Assembly: GCA_011620275.1 (NCBI GenBank)
Contig: WOZK01000004.1
Span: 21,931 to 85,930, forward strand
Direction of reading: 5' to 3'
DNA from: Candidatus Omnitrophota bacterium
GTDB taxonomy: Bacteria; Omnitrophota; Gorgyraeia; Gygaellales; Profunditerraquicolaceae
DNA length: 64,000 nucleotides
Part shown: one piece after another, positions 1 to 61,425 of the stretch
Position numbering within the stretch: position 1 is the first letter of the stretch
Layout: every line of letters starts with the position of its first letter
Program-made: the position numbers and the translations under genes
The notes under the pieces: generated by a model
What the model was told of the DNA's origin: nothing
Databases searched by the model: none
The model's input: the letters and a program-made list of their open reading frames with translations, nothing else

Positions 1-187
1 ACGTCTCTGTTATCCGCGTATAATATCCTTCCGACTGGCGGGAAACCCGTTCCAGCAGGCCTTCCGGCGCCTGCCGGTAATAAAGCAGAAAATGACGGCT
101 GCCGGTGGTCAGCCATTTTTCCTCGGCGGAACGCGCCGGGCAGGCGGAAAAAAGCAGGACCGATAAAATTAATATATACTCTTTCAT
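1..187 (-). CDS. 5'-partial (N-terminal part only) hypothetical secreted protein or lipoprotein (MKEYILILSVLLFSAC...). Its ATG overlaps the murG stop (TAATG). The rest of the gene lies beyond the window edge.
   Basis: Minus-strand translation from 187 gives a Met, a hydrophobic signal peptide and a lipobox-like LFSAC. It is translationally coupled to murG. The family is not recognised. Confidence 0.3.
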   Translation of the reverse strand, partial: MKEYILILSVLLFSACPARSAEEKWLTTGSRHFLLYYRQAPEGLLERVSRQSEGYYTRITET

Positions 188-1290
188 TAACGGCATGTCA
201 AACTAATTATTTCTTCCGCCAGCAGGCCGGCGGCGTCCCCGCCCGCCCCCGAAGCGGTTTTGCTCCGCCCGCGTCCGAAAAGCGCTTTTTCCAGAATCCT
301 GCGCAGGGCTTCCGGAGAGACCTCGGCGTCGGCAATCACCTCCGCCATGCCTGACCGCTTGAGGACCCCGGCATTGGCGTCCTGATGCTTGCCGGCGAAC
401 GGATAAGGAATAATGACCGCCGGTATTTCGTAATAAATTATCTCGCTGACCGTCATCGCCCCGGCGCGCGAGATTATCAGGTCGGCCGCGCTGTAGGCGT
501 ATTCCATCGAAGCCAGGAATTCGAACACCCTGGCATCCGCCCCGCATCCGGCATAAGCCTCCTTGACCGCGCGGTAATCTCTGCTCCCGGTCAAATGTAT
601 TATCTGTAATTTGTCGCGCTCTTCCAATAGGCTCACGGCGCGCACGAAAGAATCATTTATCCGGGAGCTTCCCTGGCTGCCGCCGGTGACCAGCACCGTG
701 AACTTCCTCGCGTCCATTCCCAAGAACGCCGCGGCTTCTGCCCGCTCCACCTTACGCAGACAGGAACGCAAAGGATTGCCTGTCAACACCGCCTTAGCGC
801 CGGCGCGCCCCAGGCGGCCGATAGTCCCGTCGAAGGAAACCGCGATTCTATCGCATAAATACGAAAGGAATAAGTTAGCTTTCCCCGGAATAACGTTCTG
901 CTCGTGTATAATGGTCCTGATCCCCAGCAGGCGCGCCAGTAATACCATCGGTACGGAACAAACGCTGCCGAATCCGGCGACGACGTCCGGACGGTAATAG
1001 ACCAGCAGAAAAAAGCTCTTTAGAAAGATCATAGGCAGATACAATAAAACGGCATATCCACCCAGGGCCCGGCGCAGCGCCGGCGGCGGATAAGGCAAAG
1101 CGGCGCTCCTCAGTCCGGCGCACTTTCTTTCCGCGGAAGGCAACGCGGCCTTTTCCGGCAAAACCAACACAGCCTCTGTCCCCCGCGCTCCGGCGCAAAG
1201 GCGTTCAATAACGCTTACAGCCGGGAAAATATGCCCTCCGCTCCTGCCGGTAACTATCAACACGCGCCGCGGGCGCCCGCGGTTCATCAC
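187..1290 (-). CDS. murG: UDP-N-acetylglucosamine--N-acetylmuramyl-(pentapeptide) pyrophosphoryl-undecaprenol GlcNAc transferase MurG
   Basis: The N-terminal motif LIVTGRSGGHIFPAVSV matches the GT28 MurG glycine-rich loop. Length is 367 aa. It sits at the end of the dcw cluster. Confidence 0.9.
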   Translation of the reverse strand: MMNRGRPRRVLIVTGRSGGHIFPAVSVIERLCAGARGTEAVLVLPEKAALPSAERKCAGLRSAALPYPPPALRRALGGYAVLLYLPMIFLKSFFLLVYYRPDVVAGFGSVCSVPMVLLARLLGIRTIIHEQNVIPGKANLFLSYLCDRIAVSFDGTIGRLGRAGAKAVLTGNPLRSCLRKVERAEAAAFLGMDARKFTVLVTGGSQGSSRINDSFVRAVSLLEERDKLQIIHLTGSRDYRAVKEAYAGCGADARVFEFLASMEYAYSAADLIISRAGAMTVSEIIYYEIPAVIIPYPFAGKHQDANAGVLKRSGMAEVIADAEVSPEALRRILEKALFGRGRSKTASGAGGDAAGLLAEEIISLTCR

Positions 1291-2381
1291 GGATATTCTC
1301 CGGTCCTGGCGATGTTCATCAGTATCCCCACGGCCACGATATCAAAGATCAAAGAAGACCCTCCGTAGCTTATGAACGGCAACGGCAGTCCTTTTGTCGG
1401 CAGTAGCCCGCAGGAAACCCCGATGTTAATCAACGTCCTGATGCAAAGCAGCGAAACCAGTCCGAGACTGAAGAAATAACTGAACTTATCGGGCGAATTC
1501 TTTATTATCTTGACGCCCTGCAGTATAAATCCCATGAACAAAAGCACCACCCCCACCGTTCCTATAAGGCCGAGTTCCTCTCCGATAATGGAAAAAATAA
1601 AATCCGTGTGAGCGGCCGGGAGATAAAAAAGCTTCTGTTTGGAATGTCCCAGCCCAACCCCGAAAAAACCGCCGGACCCCAGAGCGACCTGCGACTGTAT
1701 GATCTGGAAACCGGTGCCGCGCGGGTCGGCCCAGGGATTGAGGAACGCCAGTATGCGCATCTTACGGTAAGGCACCCGGAAGATCAACAGATAGAGAGCC
1801 GGTATGGACGCCAGAAACAACGATAATAAATAAGATACCCTTGTCCCGGCGACGAAAAGCATGATAAGCACGGTAACAGCCAGCGCCACCACCGTCCCCA
1901 GGTCCGGCTGGGCGAGTATCAACACCACCGTGCAGCCCATTGCCGCCATCGGAGGGAAGAAACCTTTCCAGAACGAACGCAGAAGATTATCCTTGCGAGC
2001 GATAAAATCGGCTATATACGCTATCAGCGCCAGATTGGCCAATTCGGAAGGCTGGAAACTTATAAACCTAAAACGGAACCACCTGCGCGCTCCGGAGACC
2101 TCGCGGCCGAACCCGGGGACCAGCACCAGCACCAGTAACAACAGGCAGACCAGAAGCAGAGGTTTGGAATAACGGGAGAATTTTCGGTAATCGGAGACCA
2201 TGGCCAGAAACGCCAGCAACATCCCGAACAGCAGAAAACAAATGTGCCTCTTCACGAAAAAAAGGCTGTCTTTATACCTGTCCAGCGCGTAGATACTGGA
2301 AGCGCTGTAGATCATGACAACGCCGATGCATATCAAGGCCACCGTCACGGCAAAAAGTGTTATCCTTATATTCCTTATCAT
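1287..2381 (-). CDS. ftsW: SEDS-family peptidoglycan glycosyltransferase FtsW
   Basis: Polytopic membrane protein with conserved FtsW/RodA segments (GSGGFFGVGLGHS..., PAAHTDFIFSIIGEELGLIG). It lies between murD and murG. Confidence 0.88.
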   Translation of the reverse strand: MIRNIRITLFAVTVALICIGVVMIYSASSIYALDRYKDSLFFVKRHICFLLFGMLLAFLAMVSDYRKFSRYSKPLLLVCLLLLVLVLVPGFGREVSGARRWFRFRFISFQPSELANLALIAYIADFIARKDNLLRSFWKGFFPPMAAMGCTVVLILAQPDLGTVVALAVTVLIMLFVAGTRVSYLLSLFLASIPALYLLIFRVPYRKMRILAFLNPWADPRGTGFQIIQSQVALGSGGFFGVGLGHSKQKLFYLPAAHTDFIFSIIGEELGLIGTVGVVLLFMGFILQGVKIIKNSPDKFSYFFSLGLVSLLCIRTLINIGVSCGLLPTKGLPLPFISYGGSSLIFDIVAVGILMNIARTGEYP

Positions 2382-3643
2382 GGCCGTTCCCCCAGCGCGG
2401 AGAACTCCGCCTTGAACGCTCTCCCCCGCTCTTCATAATTGGTAAACATGTCGAAACTGGAGCACATGGGAGACAACAGCACATAATCGCCCGTAGAAGC
2501 TTCCCGGAAGGCCCTTTGCACCGCGTCCGGCAACCCGGCGGCGTATTCCACCGGCACGCAGCCGCCCAGGCAATCCCTTATCTTGTCTTTCGCCTCGCCT
2601 ATCAGCAGCAGCTTTTTGACCTTCCTCTTCGCGGCTTTGGCTATCAACGAATAATCGCATCCCTTGTGCCTGCCTCCGGCGATCAGGAACACCTTCCCCT
2701 TTATGTTGTTCAGGGCCCACAGCGCAGATTCGGCGGTGGTCGCCTTGGAATCATTGATAAACTTTACCCCGCGCTTCTCCCCCACGAATTCGAAACGATG
2801 CTCTATGCCGCGGAAATCTTTAAAGACCTTCGCGCAGAGATCCGGAGTTATCCCGAGCAGTGAAACCGCGGTCTTTACCGCGCTTTGATTCGGATTCAAT
2901 CCTTCTTCCTCGCGGAAATAAACGGTCCTGGAACGCGCCTCTTTTCCCAATCCGCGCAAATACCGGTCCGAAGGATTGAGCAAAAGAAAATCCCCGTCTC
3001 CCTGGTTCAAATAAATGCGTTTCTTCGCCTCGAGGTATTCCCTCATCCCCGGGTACCTGTCGAGATGATTCCTGTTTAAGTTCAATATCACAGCTATCCA
3101 TGGCCTGAAATCGCGTATCGTCTCCAGTTGGAAAGAACTAACCTCCAGACAGACAAAATCTTCGGCGGCCATTTTTTCCACCTCTCCGCAGAAAGGAGTC
3201 CCGATGTTGCCGCAGACAAAAGCTCTTCTCCCGGAAGCCTTTATGACTTCCCCGATAAGAGTGGTAACAGTGGTCTTGCCGCTGGAGCCGGTGACCGCGA
3301 TCACCCGAGACGGGCAAAGCATATACGCGACTTCTATTTCTCCTATCACCGGTATGCCGGCCTGCGCGGCGAAACTGAAAACCTGGCTTTGCGGACCCAC
3401 TCCCGGAGAAACCACTACCATTTCGCTTCCGTCAAGAAATTCACGCGTGTGCCGCCCTAATTCGACCTCGATATCGGAAGAACAAAGTCCGCCCGCCGCC
3501 GTCCTGGTGAGCGTATTGTCGCAGGCGTCGGTCACTCCCACACGCGCGCCTATCCTGTAGAGGAGATTAGCGCAGGCGACGCCTGAACGCGCCAGTCCCG
3601 CGACCACGATCTTCTTCCCTTTGAAAAACTCCCGGTTTTTCAT
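2378..3643 (-). CDS. murD: UDP-N-acetylmuramoylalanine--D-glutamate ligase MurD
   Basis: N-terminal Rossmann motif KKIVVAGLARSG, Mur ligase P-loop GSSGKTT, 421 aa, dcw synteny. Confidence 0.9.
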   Translation of the reverse strand: MKNREFFKGKKIVVAGLARSGVACANLLYRIGARVGVTDACDNTLTRTAAGGLCSSDIEVELGRHTREFLDGSEMVVVSPGVGPQSQVFSFAAQAGIPVIGEIEVAYMLCPSRVIAVTGSSGKTTVTTLIGEVIKASGRRAFVCGNIGTPFCGEVEKMAAEDFVCLEVSSFQLETIRDFRPWIAVILNLNRNHLDRYPGMREYLEAKKRIYLNQGDGDFLLLNPSDRYLRGLGKEARSRTVYFREEEGLNPNQSAVKTAVSLLGITPDLCAKVFKDFRGIEHRFEFVGEKRGVKFINDSKATTAESALWALNNIKGKVFLIAGGRHKGCDYSLIAKAAKRKVKKLLLIGEAKDKIRDCLGGCVPVEYAAGLPDAVQRAFREASTGDYVLLSPMCSSFDMFTNYEERGRAFKAEFSALGERP

Positions 3644-3683
3644 CTCTCGTCTTTCATCCTTGTAAAACAGGTTCTTAATGCTT

Positions 3684-3770
3684 GGAAATCGAAAGTAGAA
3701 AATTGGCCGCCCGCACTGAAGCGTTAGCGGACTCTGTGCGCTGTTTAAGAAACTTATTTAACAGCGCACT
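3684..3770. repeat. ~90-bp intergenic repeat element (family 4) with an internal 11-bp perfect hairpin (GCGCTGTTTAA...TTAAACAGCGC). Copy 1 is in the murD-mraY gap.
   Basis: About 85% identical to the reverse complement of 55215..55302. Core shared string AAATTGRCCGCCCGCACTRAAG..TTAGCGGACTCTGTG. A 16-mer ATCGAAAGTAGAAAAT also recurs near 40170 on the other strand. Confidence 0.6.
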
Positions 3771-4860
3771 ACCTCAACTTCAGCGTTACCAGCGCTAGCA
3801 GCGCCAGAAGTCCGGCAACTATCCAGAAACGCACGATCACCTTGCTCTCCTGCCAGCCGAGAAACTGAAAATGGTGGTGCAGCGGGGCTATCTTGAATAT
3901 GCGTTTGCCGGTCAATTTGAAAGAAGCCACCTGCAGTATCACCGAAAGCGCCTCCATAACAAACACGCCCCCGATGACGATCAACAACAGCTCTTTCTTT
4001 ATCAACAGCGCGACCGTGCCGAGCGCTCCGCCCAGAGCAAGAGATCCCACGTCTCCCATGAATACGGACGCAGGATAACAATTGTACCATAAAAAACCCA
4101 GCCCGGCGCCGAGTATGGCGGAACAAAAGACCGACAGCTCCCCGGCGCCTCTTATGTAGGGAATAAAAAGATAACTGCTGAAACGAATATTGCCCGCGAG
4201 ATAACTCAATACCCCCAGCGCTAAGGCGGCCATGACCACGTTCCCGGAGGCAAGGCCATCCAGCCCGTCGGTCAAATTAACCGCGTTGGAGGAACCGGCG
4301 ATGACCAGCGCGGAGAATAATATATAAAACACGCCCAGGTCTATTGTGATCTCCTTCATAAAGGGAATGTCCAGGGCGGTCCCGTACTGGCCGTCTAAAA
4401 AAATAACGAACCCCGCTATCAACCCTACCGCCAGCTGGCTCGCGAGTTTCTGCGCCGCGCTCAGGCCTTTGGAACGCTTCCTGGCCTGCTTTAGATAATC
4501 GTCCGCGAAACCGGTAAGCCCGAGCCAAAGAGTGACCGTCAAAGCGATAATAATGTTCTTGTTAAGCGCTTCCGACCAGAGCAGCGTGGAAATGAAGACA
4601 GCCGCCAGTATAAATATCCCGCCCATAGTGGGCGTATCCTGTTTGTTTATCTGCAGTTTGTAAAGTTCGAGGCTCTCTTTATTATTGCGGATGTTCTCCC
4701 CTATCTTCTGCCGTCTGAGCATATTTATTATCCGCGGGCCGAGAATCAAACTGAGCAGGAACGCGGTCAAAGCCGCCATCGCCGCCCTGAAAGTGATGTA
4801 ACGGAATACGTTGAAGAACGCTATTTCTCCATGCAGGGGATAAAAAAGGTAGTATAGCAT
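3769..4860 (-). CDS. mraY: Phospho-N-acetylmuramoyl-pentapeptide transferase MraY
   Basis: NLTDGLDGLASG motif and polytopic membrane protein. The likely true start is MLYYLFYPLH at 4860, with a GGAGG SD 5 nt upstream. The ORF-track extension MCPRNKTQ... is read-through of the REP-like repeat cluster. Confidence 0.9.
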   Translation of the reverse strand: MLYYLFYPLHGEIAFFNVFRYITFRAAMAALTAFLLSLILGPRIINMLRRQKIGENIRNNKESLELYKLQINKQDTPTMGGIFILAAVFISTLLWSEALNKNIIIALTVTLWLGLTGFADDYLKQARKRSKGLSAAQKLASQLAVGLIAGFVIFLDGQYGTALDIPFMKEITIDLGVFYILFSALVIAGSSNAVNLTDGLDGLASGNVVMAALALGVLSYLAGNIRFSSYLFIPYIRGAGELSVFCSAILGAGLGFLWYNCYPASVFMGDVGSLALGGALGTVALLIKKELLLIVIGGVFVMEALSVILQVASFKLTGKRIFKIAPLHHHFQFLGWQESKVIVRFWIVAGLLALLALVTLKLR

Positions 4861-4890
4861 AAGCCTCCGTGTAAAAGCTCGTTGCGTCTT

Positions 4891-4980
4891 ATTCCGGGGA
4901 CACATTACTTAATTATACGGGGACACGATACTTTAAAAGTATCGTGTCCCCGGAATTCAAGTATCGTGTCCCCGGAATTC
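4891..4980. repeat. Cluster of four copies of the 23-bp REP-like element in the mraY-murF junction. Two are forward, and two are inverted and tandem. The inner forward and inverted pair form a perfect hairpin (CGGGGACACGATACTT-TAA-AAGTATCGTGTCCCCG).
   Basis: Direct reading gives attccggggacacattacttaat, cggggacacgatactt, aagtatcgtgtccccggaattc and aagtatcgtgtccccggaattc. The last copies encode the final 7 codons (EFRGHDT) and the stop of the murF ORF. Confidence 0.85.
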
Positions 4981-6330
4981 GAACACTTTCTCCATCCGCA
5001 TCCCGCGAGAACCTTTGACCAGCACGAGGTCTCTGCAGGTAACCTTAAGCGTATCGCGCAGGATACCGGCTGCCTGCGCGGAATCGGCGCAGCAGAATAT
5101 CTTCTCCGCCGCGAGTCCCGCATCCCGCGCAGCCCCGGCAGCGACGCTGGCGAGCCCGCCGACAGCCACGAGGACATCGCATACCCCGGCGGCCAGCGCT
5201 CCGGCCAGGCGATGGAACTCACCGGAGGTCGGCCCCAGTTCCAGCATATCCCCCATCACCAGTACTTTTCTGCCTACGGCGGTCATCGTCCCCAAAGCCT
5301 CTACGGCGCGCTCAAACGAAAGCGGATTGGAATTATACGTATCGTCTATGAATACCGTTACATCGCTTTTAAGCAGGCTCATCCTGCCGGCCGGAAAATC
5401 AAAACCGCCTAATTTAGCGCATATCCGATCGTAATCTATACCGAGTATCCTGCCGACTGCGGCCGCGGCCAGGGCGTTATAGACGTTATGCGCCCCTATG
5501 GTCTTCAACCGGCACGGAATTTTCCTCCCGCGCCCAATCAGGAACTCCGCTCCGCGCCGCGTGGTTTTTACTCCGGAAGCGATAAAATCGGCTCCCGGAG
5601 ACATCCCGTAACCGAATGCCCGGCGCCTCTTGATTAGCGGAACCAGCATTTTATCGTCGGCATTAAGTATCGCTACCGCCGGGCGGCGCAAGTATTTTAA
5701 CAGAGACGCCTTCTCTTTAAGGACCCCGCTCAAACTGCCGAAATGTTCCAGGTGAGAAGGCCCTATATTGGTAATAACGGCAATTGTCGGCCTGCAGACC
5801 GCGGCAAGATAAGCGATCTCGCCCGGGTGATTGCTCCCCAGTTCAAAGACGGCCGCCTGGTGCGAGGCCTTCAATTCCAGCAGCGCCAGCGGCATCCCGA
5901 TATGATTATTCCTGGTGCCCCGGTTTTTCAACACCCTGTAACCGGCGGAAAGCGCGCAGGCGATCATATCCTTGGTTGTGGTCTTGCCGTTAGAACCGGT
6001 CACGGCGACCACCGGTATATCAAAACGCATTCTGTGGAAATACGCGATAGCGGAAAGCGCCCTGACCGTGTCTTTTACCACGACCACGGCCGGACCTGAC
6101 GGTATCCCTGAAAGACCGCGCCTTGCCGTCACCAGACAGGCAGCGCCTTTGCGCGCCGCCTCCGCCAGAAAATCATGCCCGTCGAAATGCTCCCCTTTGA
6201 CCGCCACGAAAACCTGGCCCGGCACGACAGAACGGGAATCTATAGAGACACCGAGCATACTCCTCTCAACGCTGCCGGGACGAGCCAACCTTCCACAGGT
6301 AGCCTTTAGGATCTCTGAAAGCGTAAACAT
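4957..6330 (-). CDS. murF: UDP-N-acetylmuramoyl-tripeptide--D-alanyl-D-alanine ligase MurF
   Basis: N-terminus MFTLSEILKA...SIDSRSV.PGQVFVAVKGEHFDGHDF, P-loop VTGSNGKTT, 457 aa. The 3' end runs into the REP-like cluster. Confidence 0.88.
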   Translation of the reverse strand: MFTLSEILKATCGRLARPGSVERSMLGVSIDSRSVVPGQVFVAVKGEHFDGHDFLAEAARKGAACLVTARRGLSGIPSGPAVVVVKDTVRALSAIAYFHRMRFDIPVVAVTGSNGKTTTKDMIACALSAGYRVLKNRGTRNNHIGMPLALLELKASHQAAVFELGSNHPGEIAYLAAVCRPTIAVITNIGPSHLEHFGSLSGVLKEKASLLKYLRRPAVAILNADDKMLVPLIKRRRAFGYGMSPGADFIASGVKTTRRGAEFLIGRGRKIPCRLKTIGAHNVYNALAAAAVGRILGIDYDRICAKLGGFDFPAGRMSLLKSDVTVFIDDTYNSNPLSFERAVEALGTMTAVGRKVLVMGDMLELGPTSGEFHRLAGALAAGVCDVLVAVGGLASVAAGAARDAGLAAEKIFCCADSAQAAGILRDTLKVTCRDLVLVKGSRGMRMEKVFEFRGHDT

Positions 6331-7775
6331 TCCCTCACAACCTCTCTATCGTCGAAATGCAGTTTTTCCGCGCCGATTATCTGGTAATCCTCATGTCCTT
6401 TACCGGCGACCAGCACGATATCCCCGGCCGCTGCCATATCCAAAGCCGCGGCTATCGCTTCTTTCCGGTCGGGCACCACTCGGTAATTATCGCTTTTCAT
6501 ACCCTCTTCTATGGCTGAGATTATCGAAGCCGGACTCTCGGAACGCGGATTATCATTGGTAACCAGCGCGTAGTCGGAAAGCTCCGAGACTATCCCTCCC
6601 ATAAGAGGCCGCTTCTGCCTATCCCTCTCCCCTCCGCATCCGAACACGGTGATGATGCGCCCGGAAGATAATTGTCTGAGCGACGAAAGGACCTTTTCCA
6701 GCGCGTCCGGAGTATGCGCGTAATCCACGTAAACTGAGTAGCCGCGCGGGGAATCAATACGTTCCATTCTCCCGGGGACATAAGAGAAACTCTCCAGCGC
6801 GGTTTTGAGCGTTTTCCTGTCTATGCCGGAACACAAGGCCCAAACGGAAGCCGCCAGCGCGTTGTAAACGTTGTGCCGGCCTACGAGAGCCGTCCGGAAC
6901 GACTCTCCGCAGTCCGCGCCTTGCACCGTGATCCTGAAACTGCTCTCCTGCCCGGAAAGCCGGATGTCCACGGCCCGAAAATCTGAGCCTTCCAGCAGGC
7001 CGTAACCGTTCACCGCGGCCGCGGTCATCCCGCACAGCCTGCGTCCGCGTTCGTCGTCGGTATTTATGACGCAGAACGCCTTACCGGAAAGCCCGGAGAA
7101 CAACAGCGTCTTGGCCCGGAAATATTCTTCTTCCGTTTTATGGTAATCAAGATGATCCCGGGTCAGGTTCGTGAAGACGGCGGAGTGGAATTCCACGCCC
7201 TCCGTCCTGCGTTGATCGAGCGCGTGTGAAGAAACCTCCATAACCGCGTAAGACGCTCCGTTTTCATACATAGACGACAAAAGCCTCTGCAGTTCCACGG
7301 CGCCGGGGGTGGTGTTGGTAGAAGGCAGGACTTCTTCTCCCAGCCTGTAATTCACCGTGCCTATCACGCCGGCCTTTGCCCCGGAACAGGCAATGATATG
7401 CTCCAGCAGATATGTCAGGGTGGTCTTGCCGTTGGTGCCGGTTATACCCGCCACCTTGAGTTTCGAAGAAGGCTCACCATAAAAACGCGACGCCAGCCTG
7501 CCCGCGGCCGTTCTCGGATCTTCCGTTACCAGGCGGGCCACGCCCGCCGGCAGTTCCTCGAGCGCTTTGACATTCCCGGCTACGACGGCCGACGCGCCTT
7601 TAGAGACCGCCTCCGGGATGAACCTGTGCCCGTCCGTTCCGCAGCCGGGCACCGCGATGAAAAGCTCTCTCTTGATAGCGCGCCTGGAGTCCACGCATAT
7701 CCCGCGGATATCGCAGTCCGGACCTTCGTCAATCCTCGATACCGTCGTTCCCGAAATCAACCTGCTTAACTTCAT
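6306..7775 (-). CDS. murE: UDP-N-acetylmuramoyl-L-alanyl-D-glutamate--2,6-diaminopimelate ligase MurE
   Basis: P-loop GITGTNGKTT, 489 aa Mur ligase, dcw synteny between ftsI and murF. Confidence 0.9.
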   Translation of the reverse strand: MKLSRLISGTTVSRIDEGPDCDIRGICVDSRRAIKRELFIAVPGCGTDGHRFIPEAVSKGASAVVAGNVKALEELPAGVARLVTEDPRTAAGRLASRFYGEPSSKLKVAGITGTNGKTTLTYLLEHIIACSGAKAGVIGTVNYRLGEEVLPSTNTTPGAVELQRLLSSMYENGASYAVMEVSSHALDQRRTEGVEFHSAVFTNLTRDHLDYHKTEEEYFRAKTLLFSGLSGKAFCVINTDDERGRRLCGMTAAAVNGYGLLEGSDFRAVDIRLSGQESSFRITVQGADCGESFRTALVGRHNVYNALAASVWALCSGIDRKTLKTALESFSYVPGRMERIDSPRGYSVYVDYAHTPDALEKVLSSLRQLSSGRIITVFGCGGERDRQKRPLMGGIVSELSDYALVTNDNPRSESPASIISAIEEGMKSDNYRVVPDRKEAIAAALDMAAAGDIVLVAGKGHEDYQIIGAEKLHFDDREVVRECLRFQRS

Positions 7776-9477
7776 TTAACTTCCAGACCTCCTCGACCGA
7801 CTGTTTTGTCTTAAGATACCGCAAAGTGTCGGATACCACGTTCCTGAACACCGGGGAAGCGACCACTCCGCCGTAATAATAAGGCCGCGGTTCGTCGAGC
7901 ACTACCGCGACCACCAGCGCCGGTTCCTCGGCCGGCGCGAAGCCGACGAAAGAAGCGGTGAATTTACTGTGAGAATACCTGCCGTCCGGATCCAGCTTCT
8001 GGGCGGTCCCGGTCTTGCCCCCGGCGGTAAACCCCGGGACCTGGGCGAGCTTGCCCGTGCCGTGCTGCACCACTCCGGTGAGTATCTTGCGCATCCTGGC
8101 CGCCGTTTCCGCAGAGATCACCTGCCGGATCGCCTGCGGTTTGAACTCCTGGATTGCCTCACCGTATTTATCCCTCACCTCGCTTACCAGGTAAGGCTTC
8201 ATCAAAGTCCCGCCGTTGGCGATAACCGAAAAAGCGCAGGCCAGTTGCAAAACGGTCACACCGATCTCCTGTCCCATCGGCATCGTGGCTATCGATATCT
8301 TCGACCATTGTCTCGGGTTCTTTGTCACTCCGGAGATCTCTCCGGGGATATCCACTCCGGTCTTGGCGCCGAAACCGAACAGCTTGATATAACGGTAAAA
8401 CTCCGCCGGCCCGAGCTTCTGGGCGATCTTGGAGGTGCCGATGTTGCTCGACTGTTCAATCACCTCGCTGAAAGTCAGCCAACCGTGCGAACGGTGGTCG
8501 TGCAGGACGTGGCTGGCTATGCGGTAGGATCCGTTCTCACAAAAAAACTTCTCGTCCTCCCGGCTTTTCTTTTCCTCCAGCGCCCCGGCAGCCGCGACTA
8601 TCTTGAAGACCGATCCCGGCTCGAACATATCGCATACCGCGCGGTTGCGCCTGCTGTCCTGGGCGGAAGACGAATACTCGTTAAGGTCGAACGTCGGCCG
8701 GTTTGCCATAGCCAGGATCGCCCCGGTATGCGGATTCATCACCACGATACTCCCGCCTTTGGCATTGCTCGATTCGTAAGCCTTCTGGAGTTCTCGTTCG
8801 GCGATGTACTGGATCACGCCGTCGATGGTCATCACTACGTTGTCGCCGTCTTTAGGCAGAACCATGTTTTCCCATATCTCAAGCCGTTTCTGCCTGGCGT
8901 CGCGCAAGAAATAAGCCCAGCCCCCCTCGCCCTTGAGATATTTGTTATATAAAAGTTCGTTCCCCTCCAGCCCGTTATTGTCTATGCCGGCGAACCCTAT
9001 CAGGTGGCTGGACAGGTAACCGTTGGGATAACAGCGTTTACTTTCTTTAACGCAGCCGACACCCTTGATATTAAGCTTCCTCACCTCTTCGCTCTGCTGC
9101 GGCGTCATCTTTCGCTGCAGCCAGATGAAATATTTTTTTCTCCCCAGGCGCTCGCTTAAATAAGAACGTTCTACCCCGAGTATAGGCGCCAGCTGTTTTA
9201 TCGCGCGCTCCTTGTCCGCTGAAGACATCCCCGCAGGCGAGGCGAAGAGCGAATCCGCCGGTATGTTGATGGCCTGCGGCCGCATATTGATGTCGTATAT
9301 CGTCCCGCGGCGCGGTTCGAGCTCGACATAAAGGTTATGTTGTTTACGGGCTATCGAGGCGAGGTATTCCGAGCGGAAGAACTGGATGAACAACAACCGT
9401 GCTACGCAGAGAAAAAAAAATAAGAAAAACAGAAAAAAGACCGCATTAAAGCGGCGGCGGTAGGCGGCTATATACAC
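7729..9477 (-). CDS. ftsI: Peptidoglycan D,D-transpeptidase FtsI (class B PBP)
   Basis: N-terminal membrane anchor, PBP dimerisation region and transpeptidase domain. 582 aa. The apparent start codon is GTG at 9477. Confidence 0.85.
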   Translation of the reverse strand: MYIAAYRRRFNAVFFLFFLFFFLCVARLLFIQFFRSEYLASIARKQHNLYVELEPRRGTIYDINMRPQAINIPADSLFASPAGMSSADKERAIKQLAPILGVERSYLSERLGRKKYFIWLQRKMTPQQSEEVRKLNIKGVGCVKESKRCYPNGYLSSHLIGFAGIDNNGLEGNELLYNKYLKGEGGWAYFLRDARQKRLEIWENMVLPKDGDNVVMTIDGVIQYIAERELQKAYESSNAKGGSIVVMNPHTGAILAMANRPTFDLNEYSSSAQDSRRNRAVCDMFEPGSVFKIVAAAGALEEKKSREDEKFFCENGSYRIASHVLHDHRSHGWLTFSEVIEQSSNIGTSKIAQKLGPAEFYRYIKLFGFGAKTGVDIPGEISGVTKNPRQWSKISIATMPMGQEIGVTVLQLACAFSVIANGGTLMKPYLVSEVRDKYGEAIQEFKPQAIRQVISAETAARMRKILTGVVQHGTGKLAQVPGFTAGGKTGTAQKLDPDGRYSHSKFTASFVGFAPAEEPALVVAVVLDEPRPYYYGGVVASPVFRNVVSDTLRYLKTKQSVEEVWKLNEVKQVDFGNDGIED

Positions 9478-15296: not shown

Positions 15297-15324
15297 AATC
15301 GCTCCCGATTCCATAATCGTCTCG

Positions 15325-15530
15325 ATTCCGGGGATACGATACTTAATCCCTCGGCAACGGCTACGGTAACCAGCAGAATTCAACCTGTCTTTCCTCCCAA
15401 ATGGATACCACTATTCTTTCCTCCCCAATGGATGCCACCAATCTTTCCTCCCCTCGATGGGGAGGATGAAGGAGGGGTGATAATCTTCCCTATCCTCCGA
15501 TGGGAAAAACGAAGGAGGGATAATATTGAA
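15325..15530. repeat. Composite repeat. One 23-bp REP-like copy (attccggggatacgatacttaat) is followed by a CGGCAACGG..GGTAACC segment and a degenerate tandem array built around the hairpin TCCTCCCC-TCGA-TGGGGAGGA (family 2).
   Basis: Near-identical ~75-bp core (CTTTCCTCCCCTCGATGGGGAGGATGAAGGAGGGGTGATAATCTTCCCT) recurs at 55085..55160, and in reverse orientation at 52080..52160. Confidence 0.7.
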
Positions 15531-15629
15531 GCATCGACGAGACTAAAACAACGGGATCAGAGCCGATAATTGATATTCCTAAACCACGGCTAAAGCATTC
15601 TGAACCCACGCGCGCTAATCATGTATCAA

Positions 15630-17664: not shown

Positions 17665-17782
17665 CGGTTTTACCTCCGGTAAATAATATTTATGCTTCCA
17701 AGGCGCTAAAACTTTACCTTAAAGAAAAAAGTGTTGCAGCCGCCGCTCAGCACAAAAACCATGAACGCATCGAGGAGCAAAA

Positions 17783-20118
<2,336 letters not shown>

Positions 20119-20203
20119 AGGAGCACCCCGAATTTTAATTATAACACGATAATTATGTGAAGAGAAATCAATTCACAAATTAAACATTAAGCATTCCGGA
20201 ACG

Positions 20204-20533
20204 ATGGTTAAACCCATTCAATTTACCCGCAGCAGGCCATACCACAAGGACGATAACGCCCATGTAGAACAGAAAAACTGGTCTCATGTCCGACAGTGGT
20301 CCGGCTATCACCGACTCGAGAATCAAAAGATCGTTGCCCTTATAAATAACCTTTTTCCCAATGAATGGAGACTATTTCACAAACGTGCTTTCAAAGAACA
20401 GTTCTTTTACTTAAACCCCTTTAAACTACGTAAAGCTATGGAGAGAAAACTACAGGAAATCTTCACTCTTCACTTCGGCCGCCGGGCTTCTTACCCAATC
20501 CTCCTTCGGATACATTTATTAATGAGTCAATAG
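20204..20533 (+). pseudogene. C-terminal fragment of a DDE transposase (integrase-core RSRPYHKDDNAHVEQKNW tail). The N-terminal two thirds are missing.
   Basis: Only the integrase-core C-terminal segment is present. The region is AT-rich compared with its flanks. It sits in the islet next to tRNA-Arg. Confidence 0.5.
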
Positions 20534-20610
20534 TTTCGGCGCTCCACGCCCTAAAGGCCGCGGTTCGCTTATGATTTTGATAGGAAATTCTTGAAGGAAA
20601 GCAAGATCGG

Positions 20611-21849: not shown

Positions 21850-22231
21850 TCACCGTTTCTCCCGCACGAAGAATTCCACGGCGGCGGCAGCGATCCCGGA
21901 TTTCTCACGGTTGAACACCTCGACCTGCAAAGTTACGATATTTTTGCGCACGCGGGTTATCCTGGCCTCGGCAAAAATATCGCCCAGCGCCTGTTTCAGA
22001 AACCTGATGGTAAACTTCATCGTAAGAAAACTGCGCCCGGCATACCTGACCAGCAGAGCGTTGGCCGCGGCTGTGTCGGCAAGAGCGAAGATAGCCCCCC
22101 CCGTGCAGACTACCGTGCGGATTGATAAACCTCCGGGAGAAAGGGAGCTTCAACAGGGCCCGCCCATCCTCCGATTCCAGCACCTTTATGCCCAATAATC
22201 TCTCGAATTCAGCCTGGATTTTCTTTTTCAT
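21850..22231 (-). pseudogene. PaaI/4HBT hotdog-fold thioesterase, broken by a +1 frameshift in a G8 homopolymer (C8 on the plus strand at 22095..22102)
   Basis: Frame 1 gives MKKKIQAEFERLLGIKVLESEDGRALLKLPF...NPHGSLHGG. Removing one G restores ...GAIFALADTAAANALLV...KFTIRFLKQALGDIFAEARITRVRKNIVTLQVEVFNRE..., a full-length thioesterase. Confidence 0.65.
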
Positions 22232-22238
22232 ATTTTAA

Positions 22239-22370
22239 ATTCCGGGGACACGATACTTAATTCCAGAAAACGATAAAAAACCGTGTTAGATTCCGCCATT
22301 TTCTTGCGTCTATTATAACAAAATAGGATTATAACATAAGTTTCCTGATTCCGGGGACACAATACTTAAT
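22239..22370. repeat. Two direct copies of the 23-bp REP-like element (22239..22261 and 22348..22370) upstream of the RAYT gene
   Basis: attccggggacacgatacttaat and attccggggacacaatacttaat. Confidence 0.85.
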
Positions 22371-22471
22371 CCTTTGGGTTCTTAGAAAGATTTTCTTGAG
22401 GCAGCGGCCAAACCTCATTCGCTCCATAGATGACGCGCTTCTTGTATAAACCAACAAAAAGGAGGCTCTCA

Positions 22472-23083
22472 ATGGCAAGGATAGCGAGATTAGTTATACC
22501 CGGAATTCCTCACCATATTGTTGTACAAAGAGGCAATAGACGTCAAGATGTCTTCTTTAACGACGATGACAGGAGGACTTATCTTAATTATCTAAAAACA
22601 TACGCTATGCCTTCAGGGATAGAATTCCTGTCATATTGTTTAATGGAAAATCACGTGCATATTATTGGTGTCCCGAGTAACAAAGATAGTTTCGCCAACG
22701 GTTTCGGAGAAGCACACCGTAGATATACAAGAATGATTAATTTCAGAAAAGGATGGAGAGGATATTTATGGGAGGGCAGATTCAAATCGTACCCCTTAGA
22801 GGGCACTTATTTATATGCCGCGCTTCGTTATATAGAAATGAATCCTGTAAGGGCAAAAATGGTGAAGAACGCCTGGGACTATCCTTGGTCAAGCGCAAAA
22901 GCACATGTCCTAAACCACACTGACATTTTACTAACCAATAATTGTATCGCTCCGGTAGTGGAGGACTGGAGATCATTTCTTTCTGAAGATGACAAACAAG
23001 ATACCGTCAACTTATTAGAAACGCATTTGATGAGCGGACGGCCGTTGGGAGATAATAAATTTATTGAGAAGTTAAAAAACTAA
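22472..23083 (+). CDS. REP-associated tyrosine transposase (RAYT; IS200/IS605-like Y1 HUH transposase)
   Basis: HUH motif NHVHIIGVP. RAYT signature YIEMNPVRAKMV with catalytic Tyr. N-terminal IPHHIVQRGNRRQDVFF. AGGAGG SD 8 nt upstream. The gene is markedly AT-rich. It is flanked by inverted copies of the 23-bp repeat. Confidence 0.85.
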   Translation: MARIARLVIPGIPHHIVVQRGNRRQDVFFNDDDRRTYLNYLKTYAMPSGIEFLSYCLMENHVHIIGVPSNKDSFANGFGEAHRRYTRMINFRKGWRGYLWEGRFKSYPLEGTYLYAALRYIEMNPVRAKMVKNAWDYPWSSAKAHVLNHTDILLTNNCIAPVVEDWRSFLSEDDKQDTVNLLETHLMSGRPLGDNKFIEKLKN

Positions 23084-23161
23084 CCGGTAAAATACTGTAT
23101 AAACAGAAACCGGGGCCGAAGAAGGCTGAGAATGAAACTCCCCGGGCTGAGCTGCTTAATA

Positions 23162-23184
23162 ATTAAGTATCGTGTCCCCGGAAT
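23162..23184. repeat. 23-bp REP-like element, inverted copy downstream of the RAYT gene
   Basis: attaagtatcgtgtccccggaat. Confidence 0.85.
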
Positions 23185-23194
23185 TACGAGCAAG

Positions 23195-23268
23195 TGCGCC
23201 TGGCAGGACTCGAACCTGCAACGCCCAGCTCCGAAGGCTGGCGCTCTATCCAATTGAGCTACAGGCGC
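23195..23268 (-). tRNA. tRNA-Arg (anticodon TCG)
   Basis: Manual fold gives a 7-bp acceptor stem, a D-arm GTAGCTCAATTGGATAGAGC typical of Arg tRNAs, anticodon loop CTTCGGA and T-arm GGTTCGAGTCC. CCA is not encoded. Confidence 0.8.
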
Positions 23269-23282
23269 GCAAAGAGACTTTA

Positions 23283-24125
23283 TTATACCGCTTCCGCCGA
23301 CGGTCCGAGCACGCGCATAATTTCTTCTATCCTCCGCTTGTCCAAAGGAATAACGCCTTCTTCCGCCGGCTTGCGCACCGGGGAATTAACCTGGATTTTG
23401 TCCGGCTTTATGCGTTCCACGGCCTGCTTCAACCCGACGATATCCTCCGGTGAGTCGTTAAGGCCGCGCACAAGCATTATTTCCAGCCAGATCTTACCGG
23501 GATATTCCTTCCGGAATTCCTCCAGAGCGTTTATTATATCCGTTATCCTTGTCCCGGGGACCGGGCGGTCTATCTTCTCGAAGGTTTCCTGCCTTGCCGC
23601 ATCCAGGGAAGGCACCACCAGATCAGCTGACATTAGTTCTTTACGAATCGAAGGCGATACCAGCATGGAGGAATTAGTGATCACCGCCACCGGCAGATTT
23701 ACCATTTTCTTTATATCTAAAATAATCTCCCCCAGCTTACTGTTAAGGCAGGGTTCGCCTGTGCCGGCGATGGTCACGTAACTCAGTTGGGCAGCGGTAT
23801 CTTTATGCTCATCAAGCCACTCCCGCAGAGCAGAAAGCACCTGCCCGGCAGAAGAATATTCTTTTCGTTCTCCGGTCCGCATAGTCGTCCTGCCCGCCTG
23901 GCAATATACGCAGTCAAAACTGCAGATCTTGTAAGGAGTAAGATTGATCCCCAGAGAAAGACCGAGCCTGCGTGAGTTTATCGGACCGTAGATATACAAG
24001 TTTTTGCCGCGAATCATAATAAATCCGGGTTCCGGGTTATAGGCGCCGGGTTCTGAAATACCGAAGCACGAAAGAAGACGGACGAAGACCGCTTCTAAAT
24101 CAGAGGCATAGCGGGAAGCGGTCAT
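23283..24125 (-). CDS. Radical SAM protein (CxxxCxxC: CSFDCVYC), function unknown
   Basis: GPINSRRLGLSLGINLTPYKICSFDCVYCQ radical-SAM core, 280 aa. Subfamily not assigned. Confidence 0.7.
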   Translation of the reverse strand: MTASRYASDLEAVFVRLLSCFGISEPGAYNPEPGFIMIRGKNLYIYGPINSRRLGLSLGINLTPYKICSFDCVYCQAGRTTMRTGERKEYSSAGQVLSALREWLDEHKDTAAQLSYVTIAGTGEPCLNSKLGEIILDIKKMVNLPVAVITNSSMLVSPSIRKELMSADLVVPSLDAARQETFEKIDRPVPGTRITDIINALEEFRKEYPGKIWLEIMLVRGLNDSPEDIVGLKQAVERIKPDKIQVNSPVRKPAEEGVIPLDKRRIEEIMRVLGPSAEAV

Positions 24126-27708: not shown

Positions 27709-27724
27709 TATCTCCCCGCCGGTT

Positions 27725-27770
27725 TATACTTTGACGGCGCTAAAATCGCGCCTTTTAGAACGCGGATAAT
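27725..27770. repeat. 45-bp repeat (family 3), copy 2, in the lpxD to lpxC::fabZ intergenic region
   Basis: tatactttgacggcgctaaaatcgcgccttttagaacgcggataat, near-identical to 20865..20910. Confidence 0.5.
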
Positions 27771-32106: not shown

Positions 32107-32301
32107 ATCCGAAGTGAAATTTTATACCTCATACACGTTAACCCCGGCCGCGTCACCGTCGAAAAATACACGGTCGCAACAATTTTTCTCAGTATAACAC
32201 ACCGCATTCAAAAAGCAATAGAAAAATCTCTCCCCGAATTAACTCATATGAAATCTAACCGAAAGTTTTCTATACAGGCAGGTATCGTTGACTCATCAGA
32301 T

Positions 32302-33242
32302 CCCGGGGACACAATACTTAATTATAAGTTTCCTGTAAGTTTTAAATGGGTACGTAGTGTTTATTAAGTCTGGTAAAATCCAAACGGCCGGTTACCAGGA
32401 AAGCGCCGATCCTGAAGTACCGGAAGGTGCTGAAACCTATGGCGTTAGCCTTAGCCGCCTGAATTAAGAAATTAAGTCCTTCAAGGAAACCGTTATCAAT
32501 GTGCGATTTCTTCCACTGCACAACACCTTCCCAGTGAGCTTTAATCGTGCGGGCGGCTTTGTGTCTGTACTTCTTGTTTGCGAACCGTATCAACTGCCGT
32601 GTTGATGATTTTGATGATATGGAACCGGCCAAAGGTAATCTCGGCGTTAGGGAAATTATCCTTAATGCCCTTTATAAAAGCCGGCCACATATCACAACTG
32701 ACATCCGTGACTGCCTGCGGGTTGCCGTTGTGTTCTTTGATATCCTCGGCAAAAGCTTCAACGGTCTTTTGGTCATTGCCTTCGGCGATGAAAACGGTTC
32801 GCTTCTTGAGAAGGTCAACGAACAAGGTAATGTAATCGTGGCCCTTACGCCTTGAAGTCTCATCTATGCCGACGCCTTTAAGATCCCTGTAATCGTTGCC
32901 GGCCAAGGCCAGAGTCACATAACGTTCCAGTATCGCCCAAATCTTGTAATCTGATTCGCCAGTAATCCGGCTGACAGTATGAACCGGCATATGGCCGGCT
33001 AACTGGATAAGCAAAATGAAAAATCGCGCCTTTGTGAAAATCAATGTGAATATCCAGCCGCTTGCTTTCGGCGCTAAACTGGATATCTTTGATATACCAC
33101 GGTTCTTGAATATTTAGAGCAAGCTCAAACAGCTGTTGGGTAAACATTGGCATCCTCCTGGTTTATTGTTCCTACAGGATTATACCAAATTACCCATTCG
33201 AATTTCAGTAGACTGTTAAATTAAGTATTGTGTCCCCGGAAT
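32302..33242. mobile_element. Degenerate ISL3-family element, bounded at both ends by inverted copies of the 23-bp repeat (32302..32322 and 33220..33242)
   Basis: The left end is cccggggacacaatacttaat. The right end is attaagtattgtgtccccggaat. The internal transposase reading frame is frameshifted. The element is AT-rich. Confidence 0.6.
32342..33153 (-). pseudogene. ISL3-family transposase split over three frames (at least two frameshifts)
   Basis: The frames contain ISL3-like segments (HTH-like VSRITGESDYKIWAILERY; DDE core GVGIDETSRRKGHDYITLFVDL, CDMWPAFIKGIKDNFPNAEITFGRFHIIK; and a C-terminal NGFLEGLNFLIQAAKANAIGFSTF). Confidence 0.7.
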
Positions 33243-33249
33243 TACGGAA

Positions 33250-44567: not shown

Positions 44568-44598
44568 TTTTATCCCGGAACTCACGCGTGACGGCGTA

Positions 44599-44664
44599 AA
44601 TCCGGGGACACTATACTTAATTATTCCCAAAACCACAGACATTTAAGTATTGTGTCCCCGGAAT
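44599..44664. repeat. REPIN-like inverted doublet of the 23-bp element (forward 44599..44621, 19-bp spacer, inverted 44641..44664)
   Basis: aatccggggacactatacttaat...atttaagtattgtgtccccggaat, which can form a ~23-bp stem hairpin. Confidence 0.85.
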
Positions 44665-44679
44665 CCTATTAACAACCTA

Positions 44680-51757: not shown

Positions 51758-51875
51758 TATGGTTACTCCTTGAGGAATAATTAAGCTACCCAGACTTGTC
51801 CCTCGACTTTACTCAGGACAGGCACCCGGGGTACATTCGGGACACAGTCACGTTGGATTTTGTTGGTTACCGTAA

Positions 51876-52253
51876 CCAAGAACCGAAACGGGCTTAGTTA
51901 CCGTTGCCGATATTAAAACTCGTTTATCGTTTATGATGCCCTTGTCTTAGTCTTTATTTCCCTTCCCCTGGTGGGGGAGCAATAAGGACGATGATACTCT
52001 TCCTGCATCTTCCCCATCGAGGGGAAGAAAGATATGAATAATCTATTGGTTCGGGAGGGGATTGATTATCACCCCTCTAAAGCCTCCTTAGTTGTCACCC
52101 CTCCTCTATCCTCCTTAGTTACCACCCCTCCTTCATCCTCCCCATCGAGGGGAGGAAATACAGATTGAACCCTATTGGGTACCGTAGCCGAGAACCAAAA
52201 CGGACTTTGTTACCGTAACCGTTACCGAATTAAGTATCGTGTTCCCGGAATTC
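51876..52253. repeat. Composite repeat region upstream of the por operon. It has two ~45-bp GGTTACCGTAACC-type direct repeats, a G4/C4 hairpin tandem array (family 2, reverse orientation), and a terminal 23-bp REP-like copy at 52228..52253.
   Basis: The hairpins are TCCCC-TGGT-GGGGGA, CTTCCCC-ATCGA-GGGGAAG, GAGGGG-N11-CCCCTC and CCTCCCC-ATCGA-GGGGAGG. It has the same module order as 15325..15530, but inverted. Confidence 0.7.
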
Positions 52254-55030: not shown

Positions 55031-55302
55031 AATTATTCGGCAACGGTCACGGTTACCAACAGACCCCTACCTGTCTTTCCTCCCGAATGGGCACCTCCAA
55101 TCTTTCCTCCCCTCGATGGGGAGGATGAAGGAGGGGTGATAATCTTCCCTGTCATCCGATGGAGAGGATGAAGAAGGGGTGGTAATCAAGGATGATTTAG
55201 GAGGGGTGACAATCAGTGCGCTGTTCAGTAAGTTTTTTAGACAGCTCACAGAGTCCGCTAAAACTTTAGTGCGGGCGGTCAAATTTCGACTTTCGATTTT
55301 TA
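55031..55302. repeat. Adjacent copies of repeat family 2 (55031..55215) and of the ~90-bp family 4 element (55215..55302, inverted relative to 3684..3770)
   Basis: The family-2 part has a CGGCAACGGTCACGGTTACC leader, then CTTTCCTCCCCTCGATGGGGAGGATGAAGGAGGGGTGATAATC, then degenerate GGAGGGGTGRYAATC units. The family-4 part is ~85% identical to copy 1. Confidence 0.7.
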
Positions 55303-61337: not shown

Positions 61338-61413
61338 TACCGGGGACACTCCGGGGACACAATACCTAATTGCGAGTATAGCGATAAATAATTAAGTATT
61401 GTGTCCCCGGAAT
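61338..61413. repeat. REPIN-like inverted doublet of the 23-bp element in the divergent era/mutS intergenic region. An extra partial copy sits at 61338..61350.
   Basis: taccggggacact, then ccggggacacaatacctaat, a 20-bp spacer, then attaagtattgtgtccccggaat. Confidence 0.85.
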
Positions 61414-61425
61414 TACAGGTATAAA

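Follow-up and report, generated by a model that had tools for sequence, protein, structure and literature searches.

RAYT-like genes that are flanked by long inverted repeats and have no REPs were described by Di Nocera, De Gregorio & Rocco (2013), who termed the genes TIRYTs and the loci TIRtrons; the terminal inverted repeats (TIRs) have a common motif, GGGGWSAS, and TIRtrons were described in Acidobacteria, Planctomycetes and other groups (PMC3733652). Quentin et al. (2018) equated TIRYTs with subclass 2.1 of the TnpA_Y1 proteins and with Group 1 of Bertels, found the subclass in 14.9% of strains, recorded 'no REP' for it, and gave its signature as the HuH motif NHVH, W[EQ], YIELNP, an SS motif and a C-terminal extension, with a median length of 238 amino acids (aa); the Y---NP tyrosine motif is common to class 2 TnpA_Y1 proteins, including TnpA_REP (PMC6006769). 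In the survey of Bertels et al. (2017), Group 1 is the largest RAYT group, is present in 21 bacterial classes and has flanking 16-mers that occur about 12 times per replicon (PMC5581495). Here, we describe a 64,000-nucleotide (64-kb) stretch of contig WOZK01000004.1 from a Candidatus Omnitrophota bacterium, hereafter the window, in which a Y1 HUH gene lies between inverted copies of a 25-bp repeat. An earlier, sequence-only reading had taken the gene and the repeat for a REP–RAYT pair. We consider it quite probable that the locus is instead a TIRtron, that is, a single-copy TIRYT-type gene for a RAYT-like Y1 HUH nuclease/ligase (subclass 2.1, Bertels Group 1) bracketed by cognate 25-bp sites. 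The components of the locus are listed below, where numbers such as L025 denote the loci of relatives.

22238..22262, forward strand: left terminal inverted repeat, outer copy, AATTCCGGGGACACGATACTTAATT, which contains GGGGACAC and matches 23161-23185 in inverted orientation at 25/25 positions
22347..22371, forward strand: second forward repeat copy, from the repeat scan, in the presumed 5′ leader of the gene; the two-copy layout is also present in L025, L005, L059 and L114
22460..22465, forward strand: Shine-Dalgarno sequence AGGAGG, read directly from the DNA, with the ATG 6 nt further on
22472..23083, forward strand: Y1 HUH tyrosine transposase-like gene (TIRYT), 203 aa as read, with H61-V62-H63 and catalytic tyrosine Y120
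23080..23166, forward strand: out-of-frame remnant of the C-terminal tail, LTGKILYKQKPGPKKAENETPRAELLNN followed by a stop, from translation and ortholog alignment; the TAA stop lies within the right repeat
23161..23185, reverse strand: right terminal inverted repeat, 25/25 with the left copy, overlapping the ancestral stop as in L112 and L116
23194..23268, reverse strand: tRNA-Arg(TCG), 8 bp past the right repeat

Comparisons of profile, sequence and structure support the identification of the protein as a Y1 HUH enzyme that is nearer to RAYTs than to IS200. The HUH motif (N60-H61-V62-H63) and the tyrosine motif (R119-Y120-IEMNP), both recognised in this open reading frame (ORF) by the sequence-only reading, are invariant in an alignment of 46 homologs. 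Pfam Y1_Tnp (PF01797) matches residues 15-123 with 36.9 bits against a cutoff of 23, and NCBIfam NF047646 (REP_Tyr_transpos), the model for classical RAYT equivalogs, gives 53.5 bits, below its cutoff of 80; of the Y1 and RAYT profile searches proposed earlier, the first is positive and the second falls short. A sequence search of the Protein Data Bank (PDB) returned E. coli TnpA_REP (4ER8) as the best and only match (E 4e-5, core only) and no IS200 or IS608 match. The AlphaFold2 model (pLDDT 88.3, pTM 0.86) has 4ER8 as its top match in Foldseek (E 2.7e-8), with IS200, IS608 and ISDra2 at about 1e-4, and the fold and catalytic motifs of the Y1 HUH core are complete. Assignment to the TIRYTs rests on the comparison with GSU2396, a TIRYT of Geobacter sulfurreducens (sequence from Additional file 5 of Di Nocera et al.): identity is 50% over the full length (E 1e-78), as against 26% across 94 aa for E. 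coli TnpA_REP, and for this reason we call the protein a TIRYT and the locus a TIRtron. The window protein carries NHVH, WE, YIEMNP and WSS, in agreement with the signature given for subclass 2.1 by Quentin et al. (Table 1); GGGGACAC in the repeat fits GGGGWSAS; and the gene lies within 25/25 inverted repeats that are unrelated to GTAG REPs, as in other TIRtrons. Much of the sequence-only reading of the surroundings holds, namely the bracketing by inverted repeats with a second forward copy upstream, the good Shine-Dalgarno sequence, the adjoining tRNA-Arg and the AT-richness of the gene, whose GC content is 0.397 (39.7%) against 0.526 (52.6%) for the window. A check for copy number, also proposed earlier, found one gene and no further copy or fragment within the 64 kb, and no tnpB-like ORF adjoins the gene among the window ORFs.

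The window enzyme is likely to be the cognate enzyme of the repeat family, as the earlier reading had nominated it, because the same geometry recurs in loci selected by protein and because repeat variants track the protein tree. This comparison of sequences drew on two independent samples. In the first, species-representative genomes were scanned with the 22-mer TTCCGGGGACACRATACTTAAT, giving at least 110 blocks of 8 kb; 13 of these also encode a Y1 homolog, and the geometry is constant wherever it is legible. A sphingomonadal locus (L104), for example, has a forward repeat at 5675, the gene at 5734-6318 and an inverted repeat at 6399, while a locus from Pseudomonadota (L005) matches the window in having two forward copies upstream and one inverted copy downstream; L025, L059, L043, L053, L031 and L023 have layouts similar to that of the window. 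The gene lies between repeats around homologs that are 38-68% identical (L104, L005, L025, L059, L112, L114 and L116). The second sample was chosen by protein. Three Omnitrophota homologs found by exact-protein lookup (56-68% identity) are all bracketed by repeats, and in these the left and right copies have one to three genome-specific changes in common. A further 80 metagenome loci were retrieved by protein patterns alone (38-68% identity), and 73 of these were analysed. Most have left and right inverted repeats that match each other, with a common GGGGACA core, and sites within six mismatches of the window 25-mer are present upstream in 29/67 and downstream in 33/71. When these homologs are placed on a neighbour-joining tree, the repeat subtypes (for example GGGGACACAATAC, GGTGACACACAAC, GGGGACACATCAC and a distant hairpin type, AAATAGGGACAGCG) cluster by clade, and protein and site therefore diversify together. 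The conserved layout is a forward repeat, a leader, the gene and an inverted repeat that overlaps the stop codon.

A syntenic ortholog is present on contig JAAYZR010000015.1 of Candidatus Undivivens industriae (Omnitrophota; L025), where the gene is intact (222 aa) and two upstream repeat copies occur at 3666+ and 3774+. The two genomes are about 93% identical in the flanks and 88.6% identical in the element region. The shared position of the element in the two species means that its inheritance has been vertical since they separated; its GC content is low compared with either host, which points to an older acquisition from a donor of lower GC. There are also signs of repeat turnover at this site: a 28-bp insertion by the gene in Ca. 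Undivivens, absent from the window, creates an extra partial unit.

Alignment with the ortholog corrects the earlier description of the window gene as intact. Relative to the ortholog and homologs, a 1-nt deletion in the A-run TTAAAAAACT (approximately 23072-23079) brings in the stop codon at 23081-23083, and the protein ends 19 residues before the end of the ortholog, without the conserved C-terminal tail. At the deletion the window reads GAAGTTA-AAAAACT and Ca. Undivivens reads GAAGGTAGAAAGATT; a 3-nt insertion in the same alignment yields HHIVVQ. Close homologs are all about 216-227 aa in length and end in ...FIExLExLTGRxLxKQKPGPK. Their C-terminal region is helical, with a conserved GRPLG...KQKPGPK tail, and Pfam at E up to 10 found, in the tail of intact homologs and of GSU2396, none of the helix-turn-helix (HTH)-like domains (Bac_DnaA_C/HTH_23/HTH_28) expected in the C-terminal extension of TIRYTs. 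The lost tail, LTGKILYKQKPGPKK..., remains legible in another frame at 23080-23166, and its TAA stop lies within the right repeat, which is also where the intact homologs in L112 and L116 terminate. The frameshift may be a sequencing error or may reflect real decay; the catalytic core is unaffected in both cases. The ORF adjoining the element is split as well (21850-22231, reverse strand): its 108-aa portion at 21905-22231, which has no Pfam match at E up to 0.01, is frameshifted at a C8 homopolymer (approximately 22094-22101) relative to Ca. Undivivens. Two homopolymer frameshifts side by side, one in the A-run of the Y1 gene and one in C8 next door, hint at assembly error. Only one independent record exists, Logan contig SRR10568503_14702; over 14 kb it does not differ from the window (100% identity), and it is therefore probably derived from the same data.

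The same unit is dispersed through the genome as single copies, tandem copies and inverted pairs of one polarity. It has the 25-bp consensus AATTCCGGGGACAC(A/G)ATACTTAATT, and across loci conservation is sharply limited to these 25 nt, with none beyond. With up to three mismatches allowed, 13 copies of the 23-mer core occur in the window and none in 100 shuffles; two extra partial units in the cluster at 4892-4979 bring the number to 13-15 units per 64 kb. All lie at ORF boundaries, with none inside long ORFs. The copies away from the gene are as follows, with folding energies given for single-stranded DNA (ssDNA).

4892..4979, both strands: nested four-unit cluster, with an outer pair at 4892-4914 (forward) and 4955-4979 (reverse) and an inner tight pair at 4918-4936 (forward) and 4937-4957 (reverse); ssDNA -36.9 kcal/mol, z = -10.3
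15324..15348, forward strand: single unit abutting a second, unrelated repeat family, from the repeat scan
32299..33243, both strands: inverted pair, 32299-32323 (forward) and 33219-33243 (reverse), split by insertion of a decayed ISL3 transposase
44598..44665, both strands: inverted pair with an 18-nt spacer, resembling a REPIN or a miniature inverted-repeat transposable element (MITE); ssDNA hairpin -17.9 kcal/mol, z = -5.8
52228..52252, reverse strand: single unit abutting the second repeat family, from the repeat scan
61347..61414, both strands: inverted pair with an 18-nt spacer and a partial 'stutter' copy, CCGGGGACA, at its outer end; ssDNA hairpin -19.4 kcal/mol, z = -6.1

Arrangement of the units follows a strict polarity: neighbours no more than 300 bp apart form 33 inverted pairs, all with AATTCCGGGG outward and none in the opposite orientation, and 22 tandem pairs. 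The stutter is a copy of the outer 8-mer, mostly partial, which stands directly outside 35/212 units (for example GAGAATTCCGGAGAATTCCGGGGAATTCCGGGGACAC) and on the inner side of 14; in the window it is present at 61340-61349. It appears to mark the outer end as a site of repeated DNA processing. A third regularity concerns transcription of the gene. TTGAC occurs within a few bases after the upstream repeat in 17 of the 44 loci with a recognisable upstream repeat (approximately 40%), and L112 and L116 have a full TTGAC-N17-TATAAT-like promoter in this position; in the window and in Ca. Undivivens this layout is rearranged or absent, and the leader contains an extra repeat unit. Neither the pair that brackets the gene nor the short pairs show a target-site duplication. 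The AATT ends could be read as insertion 3′ of an AATT target, a direct-repeat relation like that of IS608 with TTAC; this idea was dropped in favour of end-to-end pairing because the variants AAAT...ATTT and AGTT...AACT are reverse complements and not direct repeats.

At 1.4 per 10 kb, the density of dispersed repeats in the window is unremarkable, since values near homologs range from 0 to about 17 per 10 kb. The upper end is represented by L168 (Ga0206908_1125), a 7.3-kb locus with its own variant, AAAAACCGGGACACATTACCTTTTT, and 10 copies beyond the pair that flanks its gene (approximately 17 per 10 kb); in some TIRYT lineages the repeat family has evidently been amplified strongly. L112 (locus coordinates 1-8524, from CP070837.1, a complete 1.55-Mb Omnitrophota chromosome) has its TIRYT gene just downstream of a phage-type integrase, with giant SpvB/TcdB/RHS-type toxin genes nearby, and may lie in a genomic island. 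Searches of the window with Rfam, in local E-value mode and in whole-window gathering mode, found two tRNAs only, so the repeats match no known RNA family, and a full-text literature search for the repeat in both orientations did not find it in any paper.

For the mechanism, analogues are available in E. coli TnpA_REP and IS608 TnpA (PMC3479197, PMC8266576 and PMC6006769). By analogy with these enzymes, the TIRYT would recognise the unit on ssDNA. An inverted pair may offer the unit within one long hairpin; alternatively, the unit may form a weak hairpin of its own, held together by its AATT/AATT ends and a G7:C19 pair. Y120, with a metal bound by H61/H63, would cut and rejoin the DNA, most likely at or near the outer (AATTCCGGGG) boundary. 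Short units would be copied or moved in trans, while the gene itself would stay in place and be inherited vertically. Binding at the upstream repeat probably also autoregulates the gene, because this repeat abuts a TTGAC -35 box in many relatives.

Several points weigh against reading the locus as a TIRtron with a working enzyme and site. Cleavage by TIRYTs, the choice of strand and the site of cleavage are all drawn by analogy from other enzymes. An AT-rich gene with an adjoining tRNA would also be consistent with a mobile unit gained by horizontal transfer. The frameshift truncates the window gene and removes the basic, conserved C-terminal tail, so the enzyme may be weakened or inactive unless the frameshift is a sequencing error. 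A scan of 22150-23300 for sigma-70 consensus promoters and terminators gave nothing above shuffles and nothing upstream of the gene. Folding provides evidence for the reading as well as against it. For one window-type unit alone, the minimum free energy as ssDNA is 0 kcal/mol and there is no stable fold, so the 23-mer hairpin of the sequence-only reading is not confirmed; inverted pairs reach -18 to -37 kcal/mol (z -5.8 to -10.3), and the units of distant relatives are clear hairpins (AAAATAGGG-ACAGCG-CCCTATTTT; AATTCGGTG-ACACA-CACCGAATT; AATTAAG-GTGACACACAA-CTTAATT). Covariation was assessed over 136 distinct 25-nt units, with positions 1-7 paired with 25-19. Pairing is present in 66% of cells, against 12-50% with a slid partner, and double changes number 54, compared with 33 +/- 4.6 in shuffles, a control that kinship of the sequences alone can beat without any structure. 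Compensatory end types occur (AATT/AATT, AAAT/ATTT and AGTT/AACT), and in most units, those of the window type among them, positions 5-21 and 6-20 do not pair. Taken together, the sequences are suggestive of a weak end-to-end stem in the unit.

The distribution of the unit is broad. The exact 22-mer is present in at least 12 phylum-level groups by record title, including megabase contigs and complete chromosomes, with hosts in Omnitrophota, Elusimicrobia, Planctomycetota, Desulfobacterota, Deltaproteobacteria, Gamma-, Alpha- and Zetaproteobacteria, Bdellovibrionales, Clostridia, Desulfotomaculum, Desantisbacteria, Saccharibacteria, Nitrospirae, Spirochaetota and WOR-3; this cross-phylum result is partly one of ascertainment, as protein-selected sites fall within three mismatches of the 25-mer in only about 13% of cases and within six in about 45%. 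Exact units stand beside genes that are merely 38-50% identical to the window gene. In L104 and L005, whose hosts have 64-66% GC, the gene has reached 70-73% GC and the 36%-GC repeat is unchanged. A unit that is unchanged beside diverged, GC-rich genes argues for purifying selection on the site and not for recent transfer alone. These observations allow a bolder and distinctly doubtful proposal, that the 25-mer AATTCCGGGGACACAATACTTAATT and its TIRYT form an ancient pan-bacterial protein-DNA recognition module, in which the site is near-invariant, being exact in at least 12 phylum-level groups and even in hosts of 65% GC, whereas the protein has drifted to 40-50% identity and the gene has adopted the GC content of its host. 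If this were true, a mostly unstructured 25-nt site would be read base by base. To our knowledge, such a mode has not been described for Y1 enzymes, which read hairpins and a guide tetranucleotide. The site would then perhaps be constrained by a role at host level, such as an autoregulated promoter or a function linked to replication, and would not be a purely selfish, REP-like repeat.

Two alternatives to the TIRtron deserve weighing, and both are improbable. In a classical REP/REPIN–RAYT system, the 23-mer would be a REP hairpin and the gene an equivalog of the E. coli and Pseudomonas RAYTs that spreads REPINs. The geometry is indeed REPtron-like and the nearest solved structure is that of TnpA_REP, with which the Y---NP motif of class 2 is held in common, but the score against NCBIfam REP_Tyr_transpos is below cutoff, and identity to E. 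coli TnpA_REP is about half that to a TIRYT and confined to 94 aa. Short-spacer inverted pairs resemble REPINs, yet one unit alone does not fold. GTAA forms the outer flank of 4/13 window copies, but GT[AG]G is not conserved, with G making up only about 33% at flank positions -3 and -4 across loci; moreover, Quentin et al. found no REPs for the subclass that they equated with TIRYTs (PMC6006769). The phrase 'canonical REP-RAYT-REP' in the sequence-only reading is therefore not supported, given units that are non-palindromic alone and lack a GT[AG]G foot, and a protein below the RAYT cutoff. Its suggestion that such systems are hardly described in other phyla also fails, in view of the 21 classes of Group 1, the frequency of subclass 2.1 among strains, and the TIRtrons of Acidobacteria and Planctomycetes.

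Similarly improbable is an autonomous insertion sequence (IS), in which the whole 948-bp repeat-gene-repeat unit would be mobile and recently gained by horizontal transfer beside the tRNA, with the short copies as MITE derivatives. Perfect 25-bp TIRs would suit such an element, and no true RAYT group is more IS-like than Group 1 (6.3% duplicates, 1.2% on plasmids; PMC5581495); against this, there is one gene copy in 64 kb, the gene is present in just one of 11 Ca. Undivivens blocks that the repeat scan returned, and no target-site duplication is visible. A gene at 0.40 GC in a host at 0.53, next to tRNA-Arg, could be a recent arrival, but its position is orthologous in two species, with about 93% identity in the flanks and greater divergence in the element, and in GC-rich hosts the gene has the GC content of the host (0.70-0.73), which implies long residence. 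The same 22-mer in many phyla, and the shortness of many homolog contigs, would be expected of a mobile element; a scan of viral contigs with the 22-mer gave 0 matches, which leaves a phage vehicle without support.

A DDE-type element or MITE whose ends happened to be placed around the Y1 gene (for example, one related to the ISL3 relic at 32342-33153) is so improbable that it needs little discussion, for although the inverted pair at 32299-33243 encloses ISL3 transposase fragments and the units act like 25-bp TIRs with fixed outward polarity, the sister genome has this pair intact with a 5-nt spacer and no ISL3, from which it follows that the IS entered a pre-existing pair, and the geometry of Y1 gene and repeats recurs across phyla in most loci selected by protein only; together, these two comparisons effectively refute a DDE/ISL3 MITE origin of the repeats.

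The window contains other repeats and insertions. The decayed ISL3-family transposase in the spacer of the 25-mer pair (32342-33153, reverse strand) matches Pfam DDE_Tnp_ISL3 at model positions 1-105 and 186-238 of 240, in separate frames, together with an HTH_Tnp_ISL3 fragment; its position is reminiscent of REP-targeting IS elements. A second, complex repeat family is present at 15351-15534, 51846-52190 (reverse strand) and 55037-55214, with a related arm at 3686-3770. It begins with CGGCAACGG(C/T)(T/C)ACGGT(A/T)ACC and continues in modules, such as TTTCCTCCCCTCGATGGGGAGGATGAAGGAGGGGTGATAATC, with short hairpins, and has no Rfam match. Single 25-mers lie directly 5′ of this family at 15324 and 52228, as does a degraded unit at about 55020, and because this order is consistent, the 'singleton' units may be the heads of a composite element. 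An insertion of approximately 377 bp (20175-20550) is absent from Ca. Undivivens and contains a 109-aa ORF (20204-20533; ...RPYHKDDNAHVEQKNWSHVRQ...), which has no Pfam match at E up to 0.01 and which we take to resemble a C-terminal fragment of a DDE transposase. A 32-bp inverted repeat at 20550-20581/20927-20958 is 91% complementary and encloses approximately 345 bp, and a 48-nt direct repeat (TTTATACTT.GACGGCGCTAAAA...) occurs at 20863 and 27723 (27723-27770), with a shorter copy at 17689-17712; the inverted and direct repeats look like another small MITE-like family.

The locus belongs to the TIRtrons, a class known since 2013 and from many phyla, in a host phylum that is new to it. For annotation, it follows that this is not a classical REP/RAYT pair and that RAYT-like systems outside Proteobacteria are not news in themselves. 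The regularities of the family go beyond the literature searched, in which only two papers use the term TIRYT: neither the exact recurrence of the 25-mer in at least 12 phylum-level groups nor the fixed polarity, the stutter at outer ends or the repeat-abutting -35 box was found reported there. Published surveys give TIRYTs 'no REP' or merely a short common motif. No RAYT-like group is larger or more widespread than these proteins (Group 1, subclass 2.1), yet we know of no TIRYT that has been studied biochemically. A sharply defined substrate for work in vitro is available from the locus and its relatives: a 25-nt unit of fixed polarity, a candidate cleavage end marked by the stutter, and, in about 40% of the relatives with a recognisable upstream repeat, a promoter that abuts it.

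Comparison with the known systems places the locus as follows. With the IS200/IS605 family (IS608 and ISDra2 TnpA), the window protein has in common the catalytic superfamily and, in all likelihood, a chemistry of single-strand cleavage and ligation guided by DNA structure. The tyrosine motif of that family is Y---Q, whereas that of the window protein is Y---NP (YIEMNP); IS200/IS605 ends are different subterminal hairpins, often with tnpB, whereas the window ends are identical inverted repeats with no tnpB partner; and IS200/IS605 elements occur in several near-identical copies per genome, whereas the window has one gene copy and no near-identical duplicates within 64 kb. The E. coli REPtron (TnpA_REP/RAYT, 4ER8) is closer, with the HUH/Y1 fold that gives the best structural match, a gene, present once in the window, inside inverted copies of its presumed substrate repeat, and dispersed extragenic copies that often form inverted pairs. 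It differs in that the window protein is 26% identical to TnpA_REP over the core only and lies under the NCBIfam equivalog cutoff, and in that REPs are stand-alone, species-specific hairpins with a 5′ GTAG foot, whereas the window unit is a non-folding 25-mer with a GGGGACAC core that crosses phyla. From the TIRYTs and TIRtrons, the locus departs in its host, Omnitrophota not being among the published examples, in the window copy having no C-terminal tail through the frameshift, and in the tail of its clade, where Pfam finds no HTH (Bac_DnaA_C/HTH_23/HTH_28). It resembles them in its RAYT-like Y1 protein, with NHVH, WE, YIE(L/M)NP and WSS and, in its clade, a C-terminal extension, in the GGGGWSAS-containing inverted repeats that flank the gene at a conserved distance, and in the moderately abundant family of dispersed repeats (singles, dimers and clusters) beside a gene present once in the 64 kb.

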